A stretch of 44,786 bases of DNA from a phage. Positions within the stretch are counted from its first letter, which is position 1. Each line of letters begins with the position of its first letter. This document shows positions 3,616-33,414 of the stretch, piece after piece. A model generated the notes under the pieces. It was not told the DNA's origin. It saw only the letters and a list, made by a program, of their open reading frames with translations, and ran no database searches. The translations under genes and the position numbers were made by a program. The DNA lies in the NCBI GenBank assembly GCA_012646845.1, contig GCA_012646845.1_4707.2; one strand, given 5' to 3'.

Positions 3616-4098
3616 TTAAACGCGCAGTTCGCTAGCCGAGTATCGAACGTTTTCCTTTTCGTCTGGAGAGTATTCCATCGTGTAGAATTCATAACCATCG
3701 GAAAACTTGAGTGTTAATGTAATAGGGAAATCGCACGGCATAGCTGATTTCGTAAATGCGTTATTAGCAACATCAGCCAACCGACGTATAGCATCAGTCC
3801 CGCTGACGCTGAACGGTAGTTGTATGTTGATAAGGATACGATGCTTGTAAACATAGAAAACAACGGTACTGTCGAGATAAACGCTGTGGAACGGTATTGT
3901 TGGGATGCGTTCCACGATGGTAAAATACGTCCCGTCATTATCGCTATGTCCCACCGACCAAATATCGGATTTGCGTAGATTTTGTTTGAGAGATTCGATG
4001 CTTCGAGTGACGGTATCAACAACAGGTGTAACGTAAGTGTCTTTATGCGAGTCGAAAAGTTCGTTGACGTTAGATTCGAATGAATACGTTGTTGCCAT
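3616..4098 (-). CDS. hypothetical protein (160 aa)
   Basis: ORF track; co-oriented gene block. Confidence 0.6.
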   Translation of the reverse strand: MATTYSFESNVNELFDSHKDTYVTPVVDTVTRSIESLKQNLRKSDIWSVGHSDNDGTYFTIVERIPTIPFHSVYLDSTVVFYVYKHRILINIQLPFSVSGTDAIRRLADVANNAFTKSAMPCDFPITLTLKFSDGYEFYTMEYSPDEKENVRYSASELRV

Positions 4099-4164
4099 TA
4101 TTCTACCTCAATGGTTTAACCGATACGTGCCCCACCTAACAAGGGACACGTTATCGTTGATTAA

Positions 4165-4665
4165 TTACTCTTCTGTGTTTTCATTGTCGGGATCGTAGTG
4201 GAATTCGAACAGCCCTGAACCGTCGTGCCCGTTGATTGTTAGTATAACGGGCATATCGAATCCTCGGACACGCGAATGAAAACACTGTGCTAATTTTAGT
4301 TTGGCGTATGCCGCTATTTCATTGACGGCAATACACGACTCACCTGTTATACTCAGTATAACGTCGATACTAACAATGTTGGCGTGCAACGCAAAACGCC
4401 AGCGATCGATACGATTATTATCTTTATCGGTTGTCTCGTTTACGAGATAGACTTTATCGTCAACCGACAAAGCGGGACTCCAGCAACGTTCGTTTATTAA
4501 ATTCGCCTGGAGTTTTAGTATCGTCTGATCGATAATATCCCAACACGTAACCAGCGTGACGTCAGGCACTGAATTGAGAAGGGCGAGCACTTTATCCTTT
4601 ATTTTAAGTGCTTCCGCAGGACGCCCGCAAATACCATGCATTTCAACTTTCTTATCCATATTCAC
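4165..4665 (-). CDS. hypothetical protein (166 aa; GTG start, ATG two codons in)
   Basis: ORF track; start codon is GTG at 4663-4665, in-frame ATG at 4657-4659. Confidence 0.6.
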   Translation of the reverse strand: MNMDKKVEMHGICGRPAEALKIKDKVLALLNSVPDVTLVTCWDIIDQTILKLQANLINERCWSPALSVDDKVYLVNETTDKDNNRIDRWRFALHANIVSIDVILSITGESCIAVNEIAAYAKLKLAQCFHSRVRGFDMPVILTINGHDGSGLFEFHYDPDNENTEE

Positions 4666-4702
4666 CTCTTTTTTAATCTAAATGTTAGTTGGGATAGGGC
4701 GA

Positions 4703-5305
4703 TCACATGCTTTCTAGCATATTGACGATCATGGAACCCATACCGAAACTCGGTCTCTCGCCGATGTACTCAGCAAGCTGACGATGGACGTCTTTTGGAT
4801 TTCCTTCTTCACCATCGGCATCGATGTAAACCGAAAAAGAAACCGAATCGGAATCCACGCTGATAACCAGACGACGTTCATTGCGTTCCTTGAGTGTATC
4901 GACAATAGCTGCTTTCAGTACCGGGATCGCATTCATCGCGTGCAAGATATCTCCATCGGGTTTCGGTAGATCGATCTTTTCTTTCAGGTCGATATTGATG
5001 TTGGTTACAATTGGGTTGAGGTCGACCTTGACATAATCGTTAGGATACATGCGAATAATCGCACGATCAATATCTGAACCGTAAAAGTCAACACGTGGCT
5101 TTAACACCTCTTTGTTTGGATCCATGTTTTCATCCATCCCAGCCTGCAAGAAACGTTCTACGTTATCCAGTTCACGATAAACTGACGCTTCGATTTCTTT
5201 CAGATAGTTGGCTGCGGTTTCATGCTCTTTACGCAGCTCGTCTTTAAGGAGCTGTACGGTGGTTTCACTGGAACGAATGCTGTTCGCGAATTGGGTAATT
5301 GACAT
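4703..5305 (-). CDS. hypothetical protein (200 aa)
   Basis: Track ORF begins with TTG at 5335; internal ATG at 5305 preceded by TAAGGA RBS. Confidence 0.6.
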   Translation of the reverse strand: MSITQFANSIRSSETTVQLLKDELRKEHETAANYLKEIEASVYRELDNVERFLQAGMDENMDPNKEVLKPRVDFYGSDIDRAIIRMYPNDYVKVDLNPIVTNINIDLKEKIDLPKPDGDILHAMNAIPVLKAAIVDTLKERNERRLVISVDSDSVSFSVYIDADGEEGNPKDVHRQLAEYIGERPSFGMGSMIVNMLESM

Positions 5306-5402
5306 ATTGAATTCCTTAAATTCTCTTGAGTTCAATTAATGATGAAAAGCTGTAAAAAAGGTGGGGCGAACCCCACCAAAACGTCAGACACACGCAGGAA
5401 AA

Positions 5403-5828
5403 TTAATTCAGTGACGCATATAACGCATAACGACTGTAGATCTCAACCGCCGGTCCGTTATGGGTTAACAGACCATCCTGGTTGTAATACTGGAAAAATG
5501 AATAACGTTTGTCGAAGTGATAAACAAAAGCAATGTCTTTGCCGTCAAAACCTGTGATGCGTGGTCTGTTTTTATCTAGCAATGCTTTGACTTTTAACAG
5601 TGTTGCCGCACGTGCTTTAACGTTAGGGATCAAGCCATCGCAATCGATATAAACTGTGTAACCTGTTTCAGATGTTGCGACGGTCGTATTGCGATTGATG
5701 CGAAAGATTTTTGTTTTGTATGTATCATCTTCAAGAATTGGGTTTTGTTTTTCGTATTTTCGTTTACGCAGAAATTCTACAACGGTAATATAGTTAGCGG
5801 TGATATGTCCGGTTATAGCTTGTAACAT
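5403..5828 (-). CDS. hypothetical protein (141 aa)
   Basis: ORF track; preceded by conserved leader GGATGTCAAG-ATG. Confidence 0.65.
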   Translation of the reverse strand: MLQAITGHITANYITVVEFLRKRKYEKQNPILEDDTYKTKIFRINRNTTVATSETGYTVYIDCDGLIPNVKARAATLLKVKALLDKNRPRITGFDGKDIAFVYHFDKRYSFFQYYNQDGLLTHNGPAVEIYSRYALYASLN

Positions 5829-5940
5829 CTTGACATCCTTTTATATTGGATTGGTTGCAATTGTCTTAAATAGATGATAAGATATTTTGCTCTTATCACT
5901 AAGGTAATATAGCCGTGAAATAGACTGCGTTAACAAGAAA
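5829..5940 (-). promoter_or_regulatory. Conserved promoter/leader module, copy 1
   Basis: Minus strand reads TTTCACGGCTATATTACCTTAG - hairpin (TGATAAGA..TCTTATCA) - CAATCCAATATAAAAGGATGTCAAG-ATG; same architecture at 29786-29889. Confidence 0.45.
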
Positions 5941-5948
5941 TAAAAACA

Positions 5949-6000
5949 GCATAAAACCTCCTCCCCCATCCTTCAAGAGGACGGTGGGAAGAGGGAGAGA
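5949..6000 (-). terminator. GCATAAAA-flanked GC-rich imperfect hairpin (family member)
   Basis: Lies immediately after stop of 6003..6404 on the minus strand. Confidence 0.4.
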
Positions 6001-6002
6001 GA

Positions 6003-6404
6003 TTAAATGTCGTGGACGGCATTGCCGTTTAACCAGCAATACAGCTTAACGCGACACGGATACCGCTTCGTTGCAGTAGCCATTTCATCGCGTAAACGTT
6101 GGTAGATTTCATCCTGGTGTTCACGATCAATGGGGTAATCAGCCCAACATTCGATCATGACGTCACCATTAGTCAGAATCGTCGTACGCATCCTGTCCTG
6201 GACTCGACGATCTTTCCCGGCATTAGGGAAATACATTCCTTCAGTACGAATAAGGTCGCCGCAGGGCATGACTAACCATTCGTTCGTTTTGCCGGTATTC
6301 TTATAATCCATTACGGCTTGCATTGCAGTGTCAACGCTAAAAGAAACATAATTCCAAACGGATGTCCAACGATAGATTGCGGGTTGTTCAAGTGTTTCGT
6401 TCAT
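6003..6404 (-). CDS. hypothetical protein (133 aa)
   Basis: ORF track. Confidence 0.6.
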   Translation of the reverse strand: MNETLEQPAIYRWTSVWNYVSFSVDTAMQAVMDYKNTGKTNEWLVMPCGDLIRTEGMYFPNAGKDRRVQDRMRTTILTNGDVMIECWADYPIDREHQDEIYQRLRDEMATATKRYPCRVKLYCWLNGNAVHDI

Positions 6405-6451
6405 GGAGTGCTTGTCCTATTTTTTATTTTCTGCACAGGATAAATTCAACG

Positions 6452-6498
6452 GCATAAAGCCCTTCCCTGCCCTTATATGGGGCGGGAAGAGTTTATGA
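6452..6498 (-). terminator. GCATAAA ... TTTATGA flanked GC-rich hairpin (family member)
   Basis: GCATAAAGCCCTTCCC ... GGGAAGAGTTTATGA; between 6620..7258 and 6003..6404. Confidence 0.45.
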
Positions 6499-6619
6499 CC
6501 GCAATGAGAATCTCTCACGACAAGCTCACGACGATTATCGCATCACCCCGCGAGTGAGGGAGATCAGGATCACCTCCTACGTCGTAACGACAGTAATCCC
6601 GTTAACGTCGCCTTAGGCA

Positions 6620-7258
6620 TTATGCGAAGCGACGCATGTAACCTGCCAGATAGTTACGTGTATCGAAGTAAGCAATTTCAGGAATTGCGATATTAAGGTC
6701 GATAGCACGGATTTCAACTTGGCGACGGCTTTCATCATAGATCGCATCCATCAGACGCAGTACTGTCAGGAAAGCCATGCGGGTATGGTAGTCCAGCGGC
6801 ATGTTATCGATACCACGATACAGATAACGGTTTGCGTTAAACGCCCCTTCGCGGTTATCTTTCCAGATCTTCAGAATATCAGCAAAGGCGGTGCGGAAAA
6901 CCTCAGGATTATCCACATCCAGTAACGCACGGAAAGCAGACATTAAAGACCGCTGATGACGGATCAACGACTGCGGTGTTTGCGGCATGGTCGGACCCAT
7001 TTCTTCCGCATATTTCTGGAACGGAGCAACCAGGGTTGCGGCACGAGAAGCCACGATAGAAACAGCAGGCGATTCTTTCACCGCCGGTTTCGCAGGCTTT
7101 TCTTCAACGGCGGTTTCCTTCTTCTCAACAGCAGCCGTTTCCGGTTGTGCTACAACGTTGTTGATTGGAGCAGCAGCCGCACCATTTTCCACGGTGGTCT
7201 CTACTGCTGTAATCTTTTCTTCCATTTGTGCGGAACGTTGGTCTTTATTCTTGCTCAT
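6620..7258 (-). CDS. hypothetical protein (212 aa), Ala/Glu/Lys-rich N-terminal low-complexity region
   Basis: ORF track. Confidence 0.65.
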   Translation of the reverse strand: MSKNKDQRSAQMEEKITAVETTVENGAAAAPINNVVAQPETAAVEKKETAVEEKPAKPAVKESPAVSIVASRAATLVAPFQKYAEEMGPTMPQTPQSLIRHQRSLMSAFRALLDVDNPEVFRTAFADILKIWKDNREGAFNANRYLYRGIDNMPLDYHTRMAFLTVLRLMDAIYDESRRQVEIRAIDLNIAIPEIAYFDTRNYLAGYMRRFA

Positions 7259-7283
7259 GTCTATTTCCTTTTGTTTAACAAGG

Positions 7284-8585
7284 TTAACTAATATAAAGTT
7301 CAGGATCGTAAGGCGCTAACGATACACTGGCGTTATGCATTGCTTTCATCATAGTGTTCATGAAAACGTTGTTTACACCGGTGATCTCTGCCCCGATCGC
7401 GTCTGGGGTTGGAGCCATCGCGTTACCGCAACAGGTAGCACAGTATTCCAACGGACCCGCTTTACAGCGTTGAGGATCGCGTAACTTGATGGTTTGTCCT
7501 TCCAAGGAAGCGAATAATTCAGCATCAATAAGTTTAAGCGCTGCGCCGTCGATCATGTAACGGCCGACAAGTAGCTTATCTTTGATGTGGTCGCGGTTTA
7601 CCGTGAACAGAATATGTTCTTGGGTGCCGCAGTCGTCCATCGTGATTTTAAGGTTCTGTGTTGCACGTTGCGATTCTTTAGCCGTTTGTCCGGCTAAAGC
7701 GGTCAACGCACCACGTGAGAACGAACCAGCACGTGCACTGTTGTTGTACTCCGCCCAATGGTCGACGCGCATCCCTTCGGCCAGGCTGTGTGTGATAACG
7801 TTACGTTTACCAGGGTCAACGAAGTCGGCTTCAACCCCCATCATGATGTGCGTTTTCTTTCGAGTATTACCGAAACTCTTACCGGGGTTAATATAGAACC
7901 CTTCCGATTCATCGCCCTTAAAGGATTCCTTATCCATTTTGGTTAGCGTGGCTTCGAGTTTGATCAGTTCTTCAGGGGTGAACTTACCTTCCTCTTGTAA
8001 GCGTGCCAACTCTTTATCACGATAGGCAATAATATCATCATCGACCGTTAACGCTTTATCGCTCATTGAAGGCACAATTAAGCGGTTGATAGCGGTTAAT
8101 GCGCTGATATTGTTGGTGAATTTCTTCACTTCGCTTGCGTACAGCGGACCAATCGGACGCTCGTTAGGATCGGGTATTCCCTCTTCGGGATCATCTGCTA
8201 CGCGCGGCGCAATCAGCGATTCTAGTGTGCCGCTGGTTAACCGTCCTGCCTGATATTCAATCTGAATACCGAAAGCGTCATAAAGGACGTACATATTGAA
8301 CAACGCTTCACCGAAGGTTGTGGTGGTTGTGTTCTTAACCGACGGTAGATCGCCAGGCGCAAGCTCCAACGGATCCCAGAAATTCAACAAGGGTTTTGTT
8401 GGTTCTGTTTCCCATTGGTGTTCTTCACCGTCGATGGTAACCGTAACGATGTTACCTTGACGACGTAATTTAGGCTGATACTTCTCAGCGCCCCCTTCCG
8501 TAAAAGCAAATGCGTCGTTAATCCACTCAAGATAACGGTAATGCCCTTCACGCAACGCGTAAAGGAAATAATCACGAGGTGTCAT
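7284..8585 (-). CDS. hypothetical protein (433 aa) with C-terminal Cys cluster (CATCCGNA)
   Basis: ORF track; long uninterrupted frame. Confidence 0.7.
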   Translation of the reverse strand: MTPRDYFLYALREGHYRYLEWINDAFAFTEGGAEKYQPKLRRQGNIVTVTIDGEEHQWETEPTKPLLNFWDPLELAPGDLPSVKNTTTTTFGEALFNMYVLYDAFGIQIEYQAGRLTSGTLESLIAPRVADDPEEGIPDPNERPIGPLYASEVKKFTNNISALTAINRLIVPSMSDKALTVDDDIIAYRDKELARLQEEGKFTPEELIKLEATLTKMDKESFKGDESEGFYINPGKSFGNTRKKTHIMMGVEADFVDPGKRNVITHSLAEGMRVDHWAEYNNSARAGSFSRGALTALAGQTAKESQRATQNLKITMDDCGTQEHILFTVNRDHIKDKLLVGRYMIDGAALKLIDAELFASLEGQTIKLRDPQRCKAGPLEYCATCCGNAMAPTPDAIGAEITGVNNVFMNTMMKAMHNASVSLAPYDPELYIS

Positions 8586-8598
8586 GTAACAACTCCTT

Positions 8599-9477
8599 TT
8601 AAACGTGGGTCAGGTCACCGTGACGTGAAACGAACTCTGATAACGCTCGGGTTGCTTCTTTGGATTCTTCAGCCATCGGGAAGTTTGCGGTAATAAGTTC
8701 TCGTAAGACAGGGACGAGTTCGTTATCTTCGAGATCAGAAGCTAAAGCGAATGCAATCAGTTCTTGGGTGTATGCATACGGTTGCTGACGTAATGCAGCA
8801 AGCTGATCCCGACACTGCGACATGAGCAGGTCCAGTGGAACCGCTATTGTACCCCCTTCATCAATATACTGACCGAATACCGGTGGGAACGCATCGCTGA
8901 TTACACGAATTCGTCGACGGATGCGATCGGGAATCTGGACGTTTTCTTCGTCGGCGATATTTTCGCTGTCTTTCTCCAGCTTCTTGGTCAGCACCTGCTG
9001 AATGCGTGGGAGTAAGCTTGAATGTACGAAACCGATTAGTGATGTTACACCCACAGCATCGACACCGTAAATATAATGCGCGCATTCCGCTAGCGCTTCA
9101 GCTGCGGTGTAGTCTTCATCTTCAACGATAGCGAGTAGAAAAGCGGTATCGTCATGCGTTTCCAGGTCTAATAACGTAGACGCCAGTGCATGAAGATATT
9201 TCAGGCTATCCAGAGATAGTTGCCCTTCGTTAATTCGGATCCCGAAGGCAAGCAATTGTTGTTTATAAAGTTCGATACACCCGTTTGTTAAAATGATATC
9301 GAGTTCGTTTAAATCGTATTGTTCCCCAGCACCTGACAACATCGTACTACAAAACGTTTCCAGTTGCCCGCATTTAAAATCTTGATATAAACGATACATG
9401 CAATGCTGTAACAGCGTACGCCTTGTTTCAGGGATCTTACCTTCTAACAAAGCCAAGACGGAATCAATCATATCCAC
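8599..9477 (-). CDS. hypothetical protein (292 aa)
   Basis: ORF track. Confidence 0.7.
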   Translation of the reverse strand: MDMIDSVLALLEGKIPETRRTLLQHCMYRLYQDFKCGQLETFCSTMLSGAGEQYDLNELDIILTNGCIELYKQQLLAFGIRINEGQLSLDSLKYLHALASTLLDLETHDDTAFLLAIVEDEDYTAAEALAECAHYIYGVDAVGVTSLIGFVHSSLLPRIQQVLTKKLEKDSENIADEENVQIPDRIRRRIRVISDAFPPVFGQYIDEGGTIAVPLDLLMSQCRDQLAALRQQPYAYTQELIAFALASDLEDNELVPVLRELITANFPMAEESKEATRALSEFVSRHGDLTHV

Positions 9478-17998: not shown

Positions 17999-18640
17999 TT
18001 AGATGTACTGCTTACCGCCCACGAAGGAAGTTAGCCAGTTCCCACTGACAAGCTGTGATACCCAGCCAGGCACTGCCCTGCCATTCTGACTCATCACATT
18101 ACCACACCAACCAGGGAATCCGGGACGGATATAATAGAAAGTTAAATTGTAGAGATGGCAATTCCATACTGCAACGTTATGTTTACGAGCAACCGCTTTA
18201 AAGACAAACGCAACGGGTAAAGGCGACGATAGCAATTCGGTCACGGGGACGGCCGACCAGTTCGCATTTGCGTTCCACGGTTGCCAGGTATGGCTACGCG
18301 AGTCGCAATATACGTTACCGTTGTTACCTCGCCCACCCGCATTCCACCATAGCGACGGACTCATGTTCTTAAGTGAGGTAAATTGCTGTGGTGGAATATT
18401 CGGAATAATAACAGGGTTGACGCCTTGCCCATTTTTCTTTTCTTTTGCGTTCACATACCCGCTTATCGATTCGAGGTATTTGACACCAGGATAATTGTTC
18501 TGGACTCGTGTCGCAATATCACGGACATCAAACGTCCAGCAGATCATGGTGTTGTAGTAAGCATCGGTGTTGTCGTACCATGCGTTACCATCTTGTAAAC
18601 GTGCGCCACTATTCGGTGTTTTATCTGTGCTTATAGCCAT
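17999..18640 (-). CDS. hypothetical tail-associated protein, paralog 1 (213 aa)
   Basis: C-terminal 40 aa (RPGFPGW.GNVMSQNGRAVPGWVSQLVSGNWLTSFVGGKQY) identical to neighbour apart from one residue. Confidence 0.7.
   Translation of the reverse strand: MAISTDKTPNSGARLQDGNAWYDNTDAYYNTMICWTFDVRDIATRVQNNYPGVKYLESISGYVNAKEKKNGQGVNPVIIPNIPPQQFTSLKNMSPSLWWNAGGRGNNGNVYCDSRSHTWQPWNANANWSAVPVTELLSSPLPVAFVFKAVARKHNVAVWNCHLYNLTFYYIRPGFPGWCGNVMSQNGRAVPGWVSQLVSGNWLTSFVGGKQYI
18035..18103. repeat. 69-nt near-identical direct repeat, copy 1
   Basis: Matches 18792-18860 with a single mismatch. Confidence 0.85.
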
Positions 18641-18746: not shown

Positions 18747-19412
18747 TTAAATTGATGTTAGATACTGCTTACCTCCGACAAACGATGTCAACCAGTTCCC
18801 ACTGACAAGCTGTGATACCCAGCCAGGCACTGCCCTGCCATTCTGGCTCATCACATTACCAGCCCATCCCGGAAAACCAGGTCGGAAAATATATACTTGA
18901 ATATGTGTTAAAGCGTTATCATTACCTCCACCAACAGCAACATTACGACGTCCGGATGATGGGAAATATTCTTTTAAGAACAGGGGATCGTTTGCCAATA
19001 AAGAAGCAGGCCAAGGATTAGCGGATGCGTCAACATCGAATTCGGTCCATCGCCATTTGCGTCCGGTATCGAACCAGGTTGACGTACCGCCACCACGCAC
19101 CGCAAGATTGCGTGCATCACGGGCACTGTATATTGATTCGATGTTTCGCCACCCACCTTTTGCGGCGTTTGCCGCATAGCAAACCGCATTACCACCATTC
19201 TTCTTTTCGTAAACGGTTCGTTTGATATGAACACGGTCGATAAACGCTTCACCGTATTTGTTGACAAGTGTTTGCGCAATATCACGAAGATCGTGCATAT
19301 GAAAGGCGATGTCTTCGTTGTGGAACCACGTTGTCGGGTTCCAAACGGTGCCGTTTGGTTCGGCACACATCGATCTGATATTGTTGCGCTGATTAATCGC
19401 GATAAAGCCCAT
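18747..19412 (-). CDS. hypothetical tail-associated protein, paralog 2
   Basis: Start moved to ATG at 19412 (GAGGTG RBS; track start at 19475 lies inside an upstream hairpin); N-terminal DLRDIAQTLVNKY aligns with DVRDIATRVQNNY of paralog 1. Confidence 0.7.
   Translation of the reverse strand: MGFIAINQRNNIRSMCAEPNGTVWNPTTWFHNEDIAFHMHDLRDIAQTLVNKYGEAFIDRVHIKRTVYEKKNGGNAVCYAANAAKGGWRNIESIYSARDARNLAVRGGGTSTWFDTGRKWRWTEFDVDASANPWPASLLANDPLFLKEYFPSSGRRNVAVGGGNDNALTHIQVYIFRPGFPGWAGNVMSQNGRAVPGWVSQLVSGNWLTSFVGGKQYLTSI
18792..18860. repeat. 69-nt near-identical direct repeat, copy 2
   Basis: Matches 18035-18103 with a single mismatch. Confidence 0.85.
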
Positions 19413-19527
19413 GGCCCACCTCGTTTCTATTCTCGAAGGAAATTTCATACGATGACGCCATAACAGCTCCCCCATCCCCCCAACCCGTAAGGGAAGGGAG
19501 GATGTAAGGGAAGGAGGAGCTATTTAA

Positions 19528-20075: not shown

Positions 20076-20660
20076 TTACACAGCTGTAGGAAGTTCAGGC
20101 CAATCGATATTTGGTGCTGTTGATGTGTCAACGCGGTGCAGAGCCACCCGATACTTTTTCCATGCTGTCAGCATCGACACCTCTTCTTCCGTTGCGATCT
20201 CCAGATCCACAGCATCCTGAAGTGGCGCAATACGATCATTCGCTGCCTGCATCAGACTGTTTTTTGTTTCTTCCGCCTCCCGGACATGGGATTGTTTTTC
20301 CGCATCTGTATCTTTCACCCAGGTTGTTCCGTCCCACTTCTGAAACTCTCCTTCCGGGGATAACCAAGTAGTATTTTCTGGTAACGGACCGAGTTCAGAA
20401 ATAAATAACGCGTCGCCGGAAGCCACATCATAGACGGTTTTACCCCGATGGTCTTCAACAATATACCACGATTCATTTTCACTGTTAAAAACTGCCACAA
20501 AGTCAGCAGGAATTTCCGGTGGGGCGATATCTGTAGAATTAGCTGGTAGTCCCGTATGCGGTGGAATATATGCGTCGCCTTCACCAATAAACTCATTGGT
20601 TCCGGCCAGCAGATTATAAATTTTTATGGTTTGTGGTTCATCACTCATTCTGAATGCCAT
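20076..20660 (-). CDS. tail fibre assembly protein (chaperone)
   Basis: Start overlaps fibre stop (TAATG); sequence resembles Tfa/gpG-type chaperones; position immediately downstream of fibre gene. Confidence 0.8.
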
Positions 20661-26821: not shown

Positions 26822-26868
26822 GATGATTTCCTTCTTTATTAGGATGATTACATTTAGTCAGTTTAACG

Positions 26869-26910
26869 GCATAAACCCTCCCCGCGTATGGCAGGAAGGG
26901 TGTATGGATT
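26869..26910 (-). terminator. GCATAAA-flanked GC-rich hairpin (family member)
   Basis: GCATAAACCCTCCCC ... GGAAGGG after stop of 26915..27412. Confidence 0.4.
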
Positions 26911-29467: not shown

Positions 29468-29785
29468 TTAGTTTGCACTTAAGAAATGGCCCAGAACCGT
29501 TACGATTGGAAACAGTCCCGTAACCGTATTATCGCCAGAAAACATCATCTTTGAGTCGTTAACCGTAATGAAACGGATGTCGGTTGCAGACCCATCGATA
29601 GCGACAAAACGCATCGAGTTTGGTGGAAGATCCTCAACAACTTCCACGAGGTGTTCACGATTTTCAAAGGCTTCTTTAACACGACGCATGAAACGAATCA
29701 ATGTTCCTTCAGCGTCGGCTTCCAAATGACCTAAGATATCGCGATTATTACGAATAGCGAATACAGCCATTTTAAACATACACAT
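29468..29785 (-). CDS. hypothetical protein (105 aa)
   Basis: ORF track; same conserved leader as 5403..5828. Confidence 0.6.
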   Translation of the reverse strand: MCMFKMAVFAIRNNRDILGHLEADAEGTLIRFMRRVKEAFENREHLVEVVEDLPPNSMRFVAIDGSATDIRFITVNDSKMMFSGDNTVTGLFPIVTVLGHFLSAN

Positions 29786-29889
29786 CTTGACATCCTCTTA
29801 TATTGGATTGATTGCTAATAATTCAAGGTGAAGTCAATGACTCCATTGCTTCACCTAGGTAATATAGCCGTGAAAATTAATGCATTGAC
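29786..29889 (-). promoter_or_regulatory. Conserved promoter/leader module, copy 2
   Basis: Minus strand reads TTTTCACGGCTATATTACCTAG - hairpin (GGTGAAG..CTTCACC) - CAATCCAATATAAGAGGATGTCAAG-ATG. Confidence 0.45.
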
Positions 29890-33371: not shown

Positions 33372-33388
33372 TTTGTTTCCTTTTATCA

Positions 33389-33414
33389 GCATAAACCCTC
33401 CCATACCGGGAGGG
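33389..33414 (-). terminator. GCATAAA + perfect hairpin CCCTCCC-ATACC-GGGAGGG
   Basis: Perfect 7-bp GC stem directly upstream of methyltransferase RBS. Confidence 0.55.

Follow-up and report, generated by a model that had tools for sequence, protein, structure and literature searches.

Why do two small genes of a phage begin with leaders that agree at both ends and differ in the middle? The question arises in a 44,786-nt stretch of phage DNA (GenBank assembly GCA_012646845.1, contig GCA_012646845.1_4707.2), which we call the window. The window is a relative of Escherichia phage vB_EcoM_Goslar, a nucleus-forming jumbo phage (Chimalliviridae); its positions 4000–9000 align with Goslar over their full length at 93.6% identity. 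An earlier note, made from the letters alone, had described a duplicated module of a conserved box, a hairpin and an identical ribosome-binding site and start codon, and had read it as a phage-specific promoter with a stabilizing 5′ stem-loop or as a regulatory RNA leader. Our answer is that the modules are probably early promoters of the type read by the RNA polymerase (RNAP) carried in the virion, each with its own 5′-terminal hairpin and both with a translation-initiation block that they share most likely through duplication or gene conversion.

The layout is as the note had it, on the minus strand in both places. Upstream of open reading frame (ORF) 5403..5828, the minus strand reads TTTCACGGCTATATTACCTTAG, then the hairpin TGATAAGA-GCAAAATA-TCTTATCA, a short linker and GCAACCAATCCAATATAAAAGGATGTCAAG-ATG. 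The box (block A) is an 18-mer, TTTCACGGCTATATTACC, found exactly at 5903–5920 and 29858–29875; the window holds no further match at up to three mismatches, and 0.01 are expected by chance. The 28-nt ribosome-binding and start block (block B) likewise occurs exactly twice in the window. The middle segments between the blocks are unrelated, with a global alignment no better than that of shuffles (p = 0.58), and BLASTP finds no similarity between the 141- and 105-aa proteins that follow. The note's observations of different hairpins and unrelated-looking genes are borne out.

To see how far the box extends beyond this pair, a sequence profile built from 12 sites was searched over the whole Goslar genome and the window. 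It matches 12 sites in Goslar and the two in the window at E ≤ 1e-6, all on the minus strand, and nothing more up to E = 10. In the annotation tables, 10 of the 12 Goslar sites are intergenic and lie just upstream of minus-strand genes. One family promoter is 65–70 nt upstream of gp246, which encodes the nuclear shell protein. The remaining two sites lie about 150 nt upstream of gp040 and within the annotated 62-aa ORF gp047. Some 55 nt downstream of the gp047 site (L002 49715–49756) come a good Shine–Dalgarno (SD) sequence, GAGGA, and an ATG in frame, which makes it probable that gp047 was annotated with the wrong start. Because the Goslar family has 12 members, block A is not a private two-copy duplication. 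The ‘duplicated module’ of the note therefore stands for the ribosome-binding and start block, which is specific to the pair, but not for the box.

The consensus of eight intergenic Goslar sites and the two window copies is TAAT.CA-N5-TTTCACGGC-TATATTAC-YTNN-GTGA. In copy 1 (upstream of the 141-aa gene), TTTCACGGC is at 5920–5912, the core TATATTAC at 5911–5904 and the GTGA initiation box at 5899–5896; in copy 2 (upstream of the 105-aa gene), the core is at 29866–29859 and GTGA at 29854–29851. The Goslar orthologue of copy 1 has the variant TACATTAC, as do three other Goslar sites. The upstream halves of the promoters fall into subfamilies. The 4-nt spacer between TATATTAC and GTGA (window 5900–5903) is unusually variable among near-identical copy-1 orthologues, reading CTTA, CTAG or TAAG. 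Goslar has 10 TATATTAC octamers, all on the minus strand and eight of them intergenic; the flanking consensus is absent from the two that are intragenic and from a third intragenic octamer, in the window. The bare octamer is not enriched in the window (3 found, 1.7 expected) and a loose box pattern with two mismatches occurs at chance frequency, so only the extended box is informative.

The extended box is widespread. A 16-base extended pattern, TTTNANNNNTATATTACNNNNGTGA, is found at more than 120 IMG/VR loci at least, most of them on jumbo-phage contigs of 200–325 kb. The note had named absence of the motif from the rest of the genome and from relatives as telling against its promoter reading; the Goslar and IMG/VR sites contradict such an absence. 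Four shorter IMG/VR contigs (L015, L017, L018 and L024; 10–42 kb) carry the exact 16-mer TTCACGGCTATATTAC with matches to the central part of the profile only (14.7–18.5 bits), which could be chance or could come from more distant phages.

Early promoters of phiKZ-like phages, predicted or verified, have been tabulated (PMC7058600, Table 2): TATATTAC for phiKZ, TTAWTAVAA_HYWTTTRARR_BTATATTACDWHDGTG for 201phi2-1, ...TTTYARRYAKATATTATYWWADTG for OBP and ...TTTCARRYAKATATTATYWAAGTGWA for N1M2. The AT-rich motif is centred at about −10 of early transcription starts as an ‘extended −10 box’ and is read by the virion RNAP (PMC7598289, PMC11512511, PMC8244752, PMC10914365). The Goslar-type box shares with these promoters the core octamer, an upstream TTTCA, an A/T-rich −35 region and GTG(A) 4 nt past the core. 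As in those phages, about a dozen to thirty copies are dispersed over the genome, before small genes without assigned function and before the nuclear-shell gene, and the genome encodes split RNAP subunits. The record of the 237-kb Goslar genome annotates several split RNAP beta-type subunits, a nuclear shell protein and the tubulin PhuZ, and window ORF 7284..8585 corresponds to the Goslar RNAP subunit gp078. The Goslar-type consensus differs in being sharper in TTTCACGGC and in tolerating TACATTAC variants.

The core, the extended consensus, dispersed co-oriented copies, the split RNAP and nucleus genes and a promoter at the nuclear-shell gene are thus all present, and by every sequence-level criterion examined the box is a member of the chimallivirus early-promoter family. 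The −10-like TATATT singled out in the note is this core, described as lying at about −10 of early starts made by the virion RNAP (PMC7598289, PMC11512511, PMC8244752), and the note's phage-specific promoter fits the published phiKZ-like early consensus (PMC7058600) as a prediction from sequence. Use of both promoters by the virion RNAP, and their early timing, we infer from this kinship. In the literature searched, we found no mapping or description of Goslar-like early promoters, and the Goslar GenBank record annotates terminators only, leaving promoters unannotated. The kind of element is known, then, and its mapping in Goslar-like E. coli phages is new.

Where would the transcripts begin? 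Placing the C of TATATTAC at about −7, an offset taken from literature statements on phiKZ and 201phi2-1, the predicted +1 is the second G of GTGA, G5897 in copy 1 and G29852 in copy 2, to within about 2 nt. The predicted 5′ untranslated regions (5′UTRs) are 69 nt (copy 1) and 67 nt (copy 2). When the first 36 nt from the predicted +1 are folded, the first paired base is +1 in both copies. The copy-1 hairpin folds at −9.0 kcal/mol (z −5.5) as the full inverted repeat, 5899–5874, and at −7.6 kcal/mol (z −3.9) from +1. The copy-2 hairpin has an outer stem (A)GGTGAAG / CTTCACC(T), an inner stem CAATG / CATTG, an A bulge and the loop GAGT; the full repeat, 29856–29826, folds at −16.4 kcal/mol (z −5.2), and z is −2.5 from +1.

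Such hairpins are a tendency of the promoter class. Counting a hairpin as 5′-terminal if its first paired base is at position 2 or earlier and it has at least 4 bp, 8 of the 12 independent Goslar promoters have one; among control positions that start with GA the fraction is 0.19–0.21 (binomial p about 5e-4 to 7e-4). Shifting +1 downstream of GTGA makes the signal decay. The mean z of the Goslar promoters is −1.69. At 109 unique sites in other jumbo phages, among the matches listed, mean z is −0.83 against −0.22 for controls (Mann–Whitney p = 1.4e-4, which is optimistic because many sites are mutually orthologous), and 24% of these sites have z < −2, compared with 8% of controls. Stems of at least 6 bp in the other phages start preferentially exactly at the G of GTGA; a second peak of stem starts is the palindrome inherent in the consensus, TATTAC-N4-GTGATA.

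Sister genomes separate stem from loop. Across 9–10 Goslar-like genomes from IMG/VR and metagenomes, the copy-1 stem varies at 1 of 16 sites, by a change from G-C to G-U, and its loop at all 8 of 8, including a wholesale swap of GCAAAATA for CATCGGGT (9 genomes). In the copy-2 outer stem all 14 sites are invariant, and 6 of the 15 interior sites vary, with re-pairing or alternative inner pairings (8 copies). Pooled over orthologues, variation affects 1 of 30 stem sites and 14 of 23 sites in loops or interiors. Fixed stems beside free loops indicate that a hairpin is selected, and not any particular sequence. With hairpins that begin at the predicted +1, are enriched at the promoter class and keep their stems in sister genomes, the note's reading of a promoter with a 5′ stem-loop is supported, the transcription start and the function of the hairpin being predictions.

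As to that function, 5′-terminal stem-loops that stabilize mRNA are established for ompA and papA of E. coli (Emory et al., 1992; Bouvet and Belasco, 1992; both as cited in PMC3997798). [quoted passage not shown] By analogy, they would be expected to block access of RppH and of 5′-end-dependent RNase E. They differ in that the stems are short and A/U-rich, that some of the repeats reach upstream of the presumed +1 and that not every promoter has one. A stabilizer role of the ompA/papA type appears to be the best-supported role for the hairpin. The transcriptome and biology papers searched contained no description of such hairpins at the start of chimallivirus early mRNAs.

The second shared element, block B, ends exactly at the start codon. 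The 28-mer CAATCCAATATAARAGGATGTCAAGATG is at 5826–5853 and 29783–29810 on the minus strand (0.00 expected by chance), within a 34-nt repeat of 94% identity. It consists of 13 conserved A/U-rich nucleotides, an extended SD sequence AAGGAUGU, 4 nt and AUG. Block B is confined to these two loci, in Goslar as in the window, and it is retained in 17 of 17 copies from 10 genomes with 3–4 variable sites. Both paralogues are polymorphic (A/G) at one and the same site, where they agree within Goslar and within the sister genome UViG_3300011560 (UViG_11560). A second promoter class or general operator was considered for block B and rejected, its words occurring at chance frequency in Goslar and at no other gene starts. 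An excess of GCAACCAA was also rejected as an operator signal, since it is coding sequence (Ala-Thr-Lys/Asn).

How leaders might come to share such a block is suggested by sister genomes in which leader segments have moved. In OGZS01 (L150, OGZS01000006.1), the copy-1 promoter contains a 43-nt patch with homology to the Goslar gp200 leader (L006 27043–27095), which is made up of a TTCATGA hairpin, GCGACG, a small hairpin and CGTTACCTT. The patch junctions fall in the shared sequences CTATATTAC and TTACCTT. UViG_11560 has a different, 53-nt two-hairpin insertion at the same place (L007 4376–4437), for which no donor was found among the collected loci or in IMG/VR. Such movement of leader segments between early promoters makes it most likely that block B came to be shared by duplication of a module or by gene conversion, after which the hairpins diverged freely. 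Leader-cassette exchange between early promoters is, like the tendency to a 5′-terminal hairpin, modestly new.

Two further observations concern the same place. UViG_11560, OGZS01 and the gp200 leader share a common layout: X (CCTTnnTGA), a loop, X′, GCGA, a second hairpin and (T)ACCT..GTGA. Here X is the initiation region of the promoter, from about −7 to +2, X′ is its perfect reverse complement, and the two change together between the three loci. Separately, UViG_11560 (L140 832–1286) and UViG_3300045988 (UViG_45988; L139 ~875–1330) have an extra ORF of about 151 aa with its own terminator beside the copy-1 promoter. It sits between the homologue of 6003..6404 and that promoter (the equivalent of window 5995/6003) and is absent from the window and Goslar: a flux of accessory genes exactly at a terminator/promoter junction.

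In the explanation we favor, the virion-carried multisubunit RNAP would read each early promoter, laid out as TAAT.CA (about −35), TTTCACGGC, the core TATATTAC (about −14 to −7), a variable 4-nt spacer and GTGA. The first nucleotides of the mRNA would be locked in a promoter-specific hairpin, and this 5′-terminal stem-loop may protect immediate-early transcripts from 5′-end-dependent decay by RppH and RNase E in E. coli. About 40 nt further on, both leaders would end in the 34-nt translation-initiation block, fused exactly at the start codon to unrelated small ORFan genes. The promoter-leader modules would behave as dispersed repeats that are duplicated and trade segments through ectopic recombination or gene conversion. 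Sequence constraint would act on the promoter and the ribosome-binding block, and the hairpin would need only to stay a hairpin.

A bolder alternative, possible but in our judgement doubtful as a whole, would make the modules recombining regulatory cassettes. Hairpin units would be copied between promoters, with the invariant core CTATATTAC and TTACCT as homology arms. Pairing from about −7 to +2 onward would itself be selected, as the X/X′ covariation of the gp200 type suggests. The hairpin would then be integral to initiation by the virion RNAP, or to the survival of immediate-early mRNA and its exit from the early infection vesicle, a role previously undescribed, and block B would mark a two-gene immediate-early translational regulon.

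Several points weigh against the explanation by early promoter, stabilizing hairpin and exchanged block. The +1 is extrapolated from other genera with an uncertainty of about 2 nt. Four of the 12 Goslar promoters and most promoters of other genera have no clear 5′-terminal hairpin, so the hairpin is not obligatory. Some inverted repeats reach upstream of the assumed +1, to about −4 in copy 2 and to about −7, with apparent covariation, in the gp200 type. A purely RNA-level role leaves these unexplained; they may reflect a different start site, an additional action at the DNA level or palindromes that are by-products of insertion. Folding of the full leaders gives no support for a larger conserved structure (z = −2.1 for copy 1, +0.3 for copy 2). 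Finally, orthologous copies of block B are no better conserved than a background divergence of about 6% would predict; what is unusual is only the identity between paralogues, and from it selection and gene conversion are inseparable.

Four rival explanations were weighed. The inverted repeat might act as DNA, either as an extruded hairpin or melted-strand structure that aids opening or escape by the virion RNAP, somewhat as at the virion-RNAP hairpin promoters of phage N4, or as a palindromic site for a protein that shuts off early transcription. The copy-2 stem does begin at about −4, the stems of gp200, OGZS01 and UViG_11560 begin at the last C of TATATTAC, X and X′ co-change (CCTTCATGA/TCATGAAGG, CCTTAGTGA/TCACTAAGG, GTTCATGATGC/GCATCATGAAC) and the consensus is itself a weak palindrome. 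But stems of 5–12 bp, loops of 3–13 nt and start columns from 33 to 44 vary too widely to fit one protein or structure, the promoters that lack such a repeat are as noted above, the preferred stem start in other genera is exactly the predicted +1, and the hairpins of phage N4 lie upstream of +1 and serve a single-subunit enzyme. We think action as DNA quite unlikely. The hairpin might instead be an attenuator, a terminator acting conditionally or prematurely to give a short 5′UTR-derived RNA; the module would then be a regulatory RNA leader, the note's second reading. Terminators in 5′UTRs are numerous in phiKZ and 201phi2-1, with abundant RNAs shorter than 250 nt (PMC10914365, PMC11512511), and the 3′ arm of the copy-1 hairpin can pair instead with the SD/AUG region in the minimum free energy fold of the full leader. 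That alternative pairing is, however, weakened in UViG_45988 and not predicted for copy 2. Neither hairpin is directly followed by a U-tract or a phage-type TTAT tail, a terminator scan found none there, and Rfam finds nothing at the leaders. At −7.6 to −9 kcal/mol, the A/U-rich stems are weak next to the phage's own terminators (−17 to −28), and an RNA that stopped at the hairpin would have a length of only some 25 nt. An attenuator is very unlikely.

For block B, the rival is selection rather than exchange: a specific post-transcriptional operator, bound by a phage translational repressor or activator or by a small RNA, through which two early genes are co-regulated. T4 RegA binds initiation regions of early mRNAs. 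The paralogues are 94–100% identical in the block next to an unrelated leader, the block is kept in every copy with few variable sites, and its conserved part runs 13 nt upstream of the SD sequence, beyond what ribosome binding needs. Against this, each genome has only two sites and other gene starts share no part of the block, conservation among orthologues does not exceed the background, the A/G polymorphism matches between paralogues within Goslar and UViG_11560 as gene conversion predicts, and no candidate binding partner was identified. We hold an operator to be unlikely, and how the block became shared is better read from the leader exchanges above. Lastly, the box could be an ordinary host sigma-70 promoter with the rest coincidental. 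Copy 1 does overlap a 9/12 match, TTAACG-16-TATATT, but 9/12 matches occur at the rate expected from shuffles, and copy 2 has none. The invariant TTTCACGGC in the ‘spacer’, the C after TATATTA and GTGA at +1 are not sigma-70 elements, and the extended motif also occurs in jumbo phages whose hosts are Pseudomonas, Erwinia, Salmonella, Cronobacter and Aeromonas. Development of phiKZ is reportedly independent of the host RNAP, a finding attributed to Ceyssens et al. 2014, which we also count against this rival. We give a sigma-70 promoter next to no credence.

The modules can also be set beside known systems that combine early promoters with structured elements. T4-type PeSL cassettes (PMC2839356, PMC4122927) are likewise dispersed, conserved early-promoter modules with stem-loops, and indels and exchanges between close relatives map to the modules here too (UViG_11560, UViG_45988, OGZS01). 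Copy 1 shares their order of a terminator (5994–5946) followed by an early promoter; copy 2 is without an upstream terminator. In PeSL, however, the promoter is of the sigma-70 type and the stem-loop is the upstream terminator, whereas the window modules have what their sequence marks as a promoter of the phage's own RNAP, with the characteristic hairpin downstream, at +1. They fail the PeSL definition on promoter type, the conserved positions being non-sigma-70, and on hairpin position. With N4 early promoters the modules share the predicted use of an RNAP delivered in the virion and the pairing of a conserved promoter sequence with an inverted repeat (PMC4496689). The N4 hairpin, with a stem of 5–7 bp and a 3-nt loop, is upstream of +1 and is recognized as DNA by the single-subunit virion RNAP (PMC4496689); repeats of the window type begin at about −7 to +5, have loops of 3–13 nt in variable positions and go with a multisubunit enzyme. 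An N4-type hairpin promoter is ruled out by repeat position, range of loop sizes and variable placement. The 5′UTR-derived small RNAs of phiKZ and 201phi2-1 (PMC10914365, PMC11512511) come from phages of the same family and are likewise structured elements that immediately follow phage promoters; they differ in having recognizable terminator ends and lengths of 70–250 nt, whereas the window hairpins have no terminator tail. The ‘conserved sRNA’ of 201phi2-1 was considered as a counterpart and is unrelated, lying upstream of a tail gene.

Goslar is the E. coli model for nucleus-forming phages, and the box gives a 12-site map of its predicted immediate-early regulon. The homologues of gp075 and gp105, the genes behind copies 1 and 2, are candidates for the first proteins made after genome injection. 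The modules may serve as ready-made early expression cassettes for phage engineering; a consensus early promoter has been used for transposon selection in phiKZ (PMC12676376). The hairpin tendency and the leader exchange are testable additions to what is described of early expression and genome plasticity in Chimalliviridae. Coordinates of the features are collected in Table 1.

Table 1. Features of the two modules and their surroundings (window coordinates)
Feature	Position	Strand	Details
Early (virion-RNAP type) promoter, copy 1 (predicted)	5893..5934	minus	Profile match 41.6 bits, E 2.5e-11
Early (virion-RNAP type) promoter, copy 2 (predicted)	29849..29889	minus	Profile match 42.3 bits, E 1.5e-11
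Hairpin, copy 1	5874..5899	minus	GTGATAAGA-8 nt-TCTTATCAT; stem (G)TGATAAGA / TCTTATCA(T), loop GCAAAATA
Hairpin, copy 2	29826..29856	minus	AGGTGAAGCAATG-GAGT-CATTG-A-CTTCACCT
Block B, copy 1	5825..5858	minus	GCAACCAATCCAATATAAAAGGATGTCAAGATGT; SD AAGGA 5840-5836, ATG 5828-5826
Block B, copy 2	29782..29815	minus	GCAATCAATCCAATATAAGAGGATGTCAAGATGT; ATG 29785-29783
Copy-1 gene	5403..5828	minus	141 aa, homologue of Goslar gp075, matches no known family
Copy-2 first gene	29468..29785	minus	105 aa, homologue of Goslar gp105, matches no known family
Terminator of upstream gene 6003..6404	5946..5994	minus	Hairpin 5994-5957, tail TTTTATGCTGT 5956-5946
Intrinsic terminator ending the copy-1 unit	5354..5377	minus	GGTGGGGTTCGCCCCACC + T6

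Searches of Pfam and PHROGs with both genes and their upstream neighbours gave nothing useful. In IMG/VR, homologues of gp075 and gp105 are found in Goslar-like genomes only, at 93–99% amino-acid identity, and none of these genomes is identical to the window. The copy-1 cassette runs in the order upstream terminator, promoter, 5′ hairpin, block B, 141-aa gene and intrinsic terminator. Since the intrinsic terminator, which the Goslar record annotates at the matching place, closes the unit, the copy-1 unit is monocistronic. The copy-2 promoter starts directly past the stop codon (29892–29890) of the upstream gene, and the 105-aa gene is followed by further small minus-strand ORFs; the scan found no terminator near this gene or the run of ORFs.

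The terminator of 6003..6404 abuts the copy-1 promoter and forms with it a composite terminator/promoter junction. Its hairpin folds at −28.4 kcal/mol (z −3.4), and its tail resembles the end, ...GGGRRGGBYTTATKYYGT, of the conserved phiKZ terminator motif, BCCYCCCCHWWDGGGRRGGBYTTATKYYGT (PMC10914365). This terminator is of a recurrent type, a pyrimidine/purine-rich GC hairpin followed by TTTATGC(C/T)GT, which is also found as repeat family D4 at 6445–6465, 26862–26882 and 33382–33402 (plus-strand coordinates). The close resemblance of the D4 terminators to the phiKZ motif suggests that the terminator signal, like the early promoter, is common across chimallivirus genera.

Two features elsewhere in the window were also seen. 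Rfam, searched over the whole window, has no match at either leader; its sole match is a full-length IS009 (RF02111) at 20119–20317 on the minus strand (173.8 bits; gathering score 117), within ORF 20076..20660 and adjoining the region of a P1-gpS-like tail-fibre gene (Goslar gp089/gp090). A 131-nt direct repeat of 85% identity, at 18006–18136 and 18763–18893, falls in two adjacent ORFs, 17999..18640 and 18747..19475, probably a tandem pair of paralogues.

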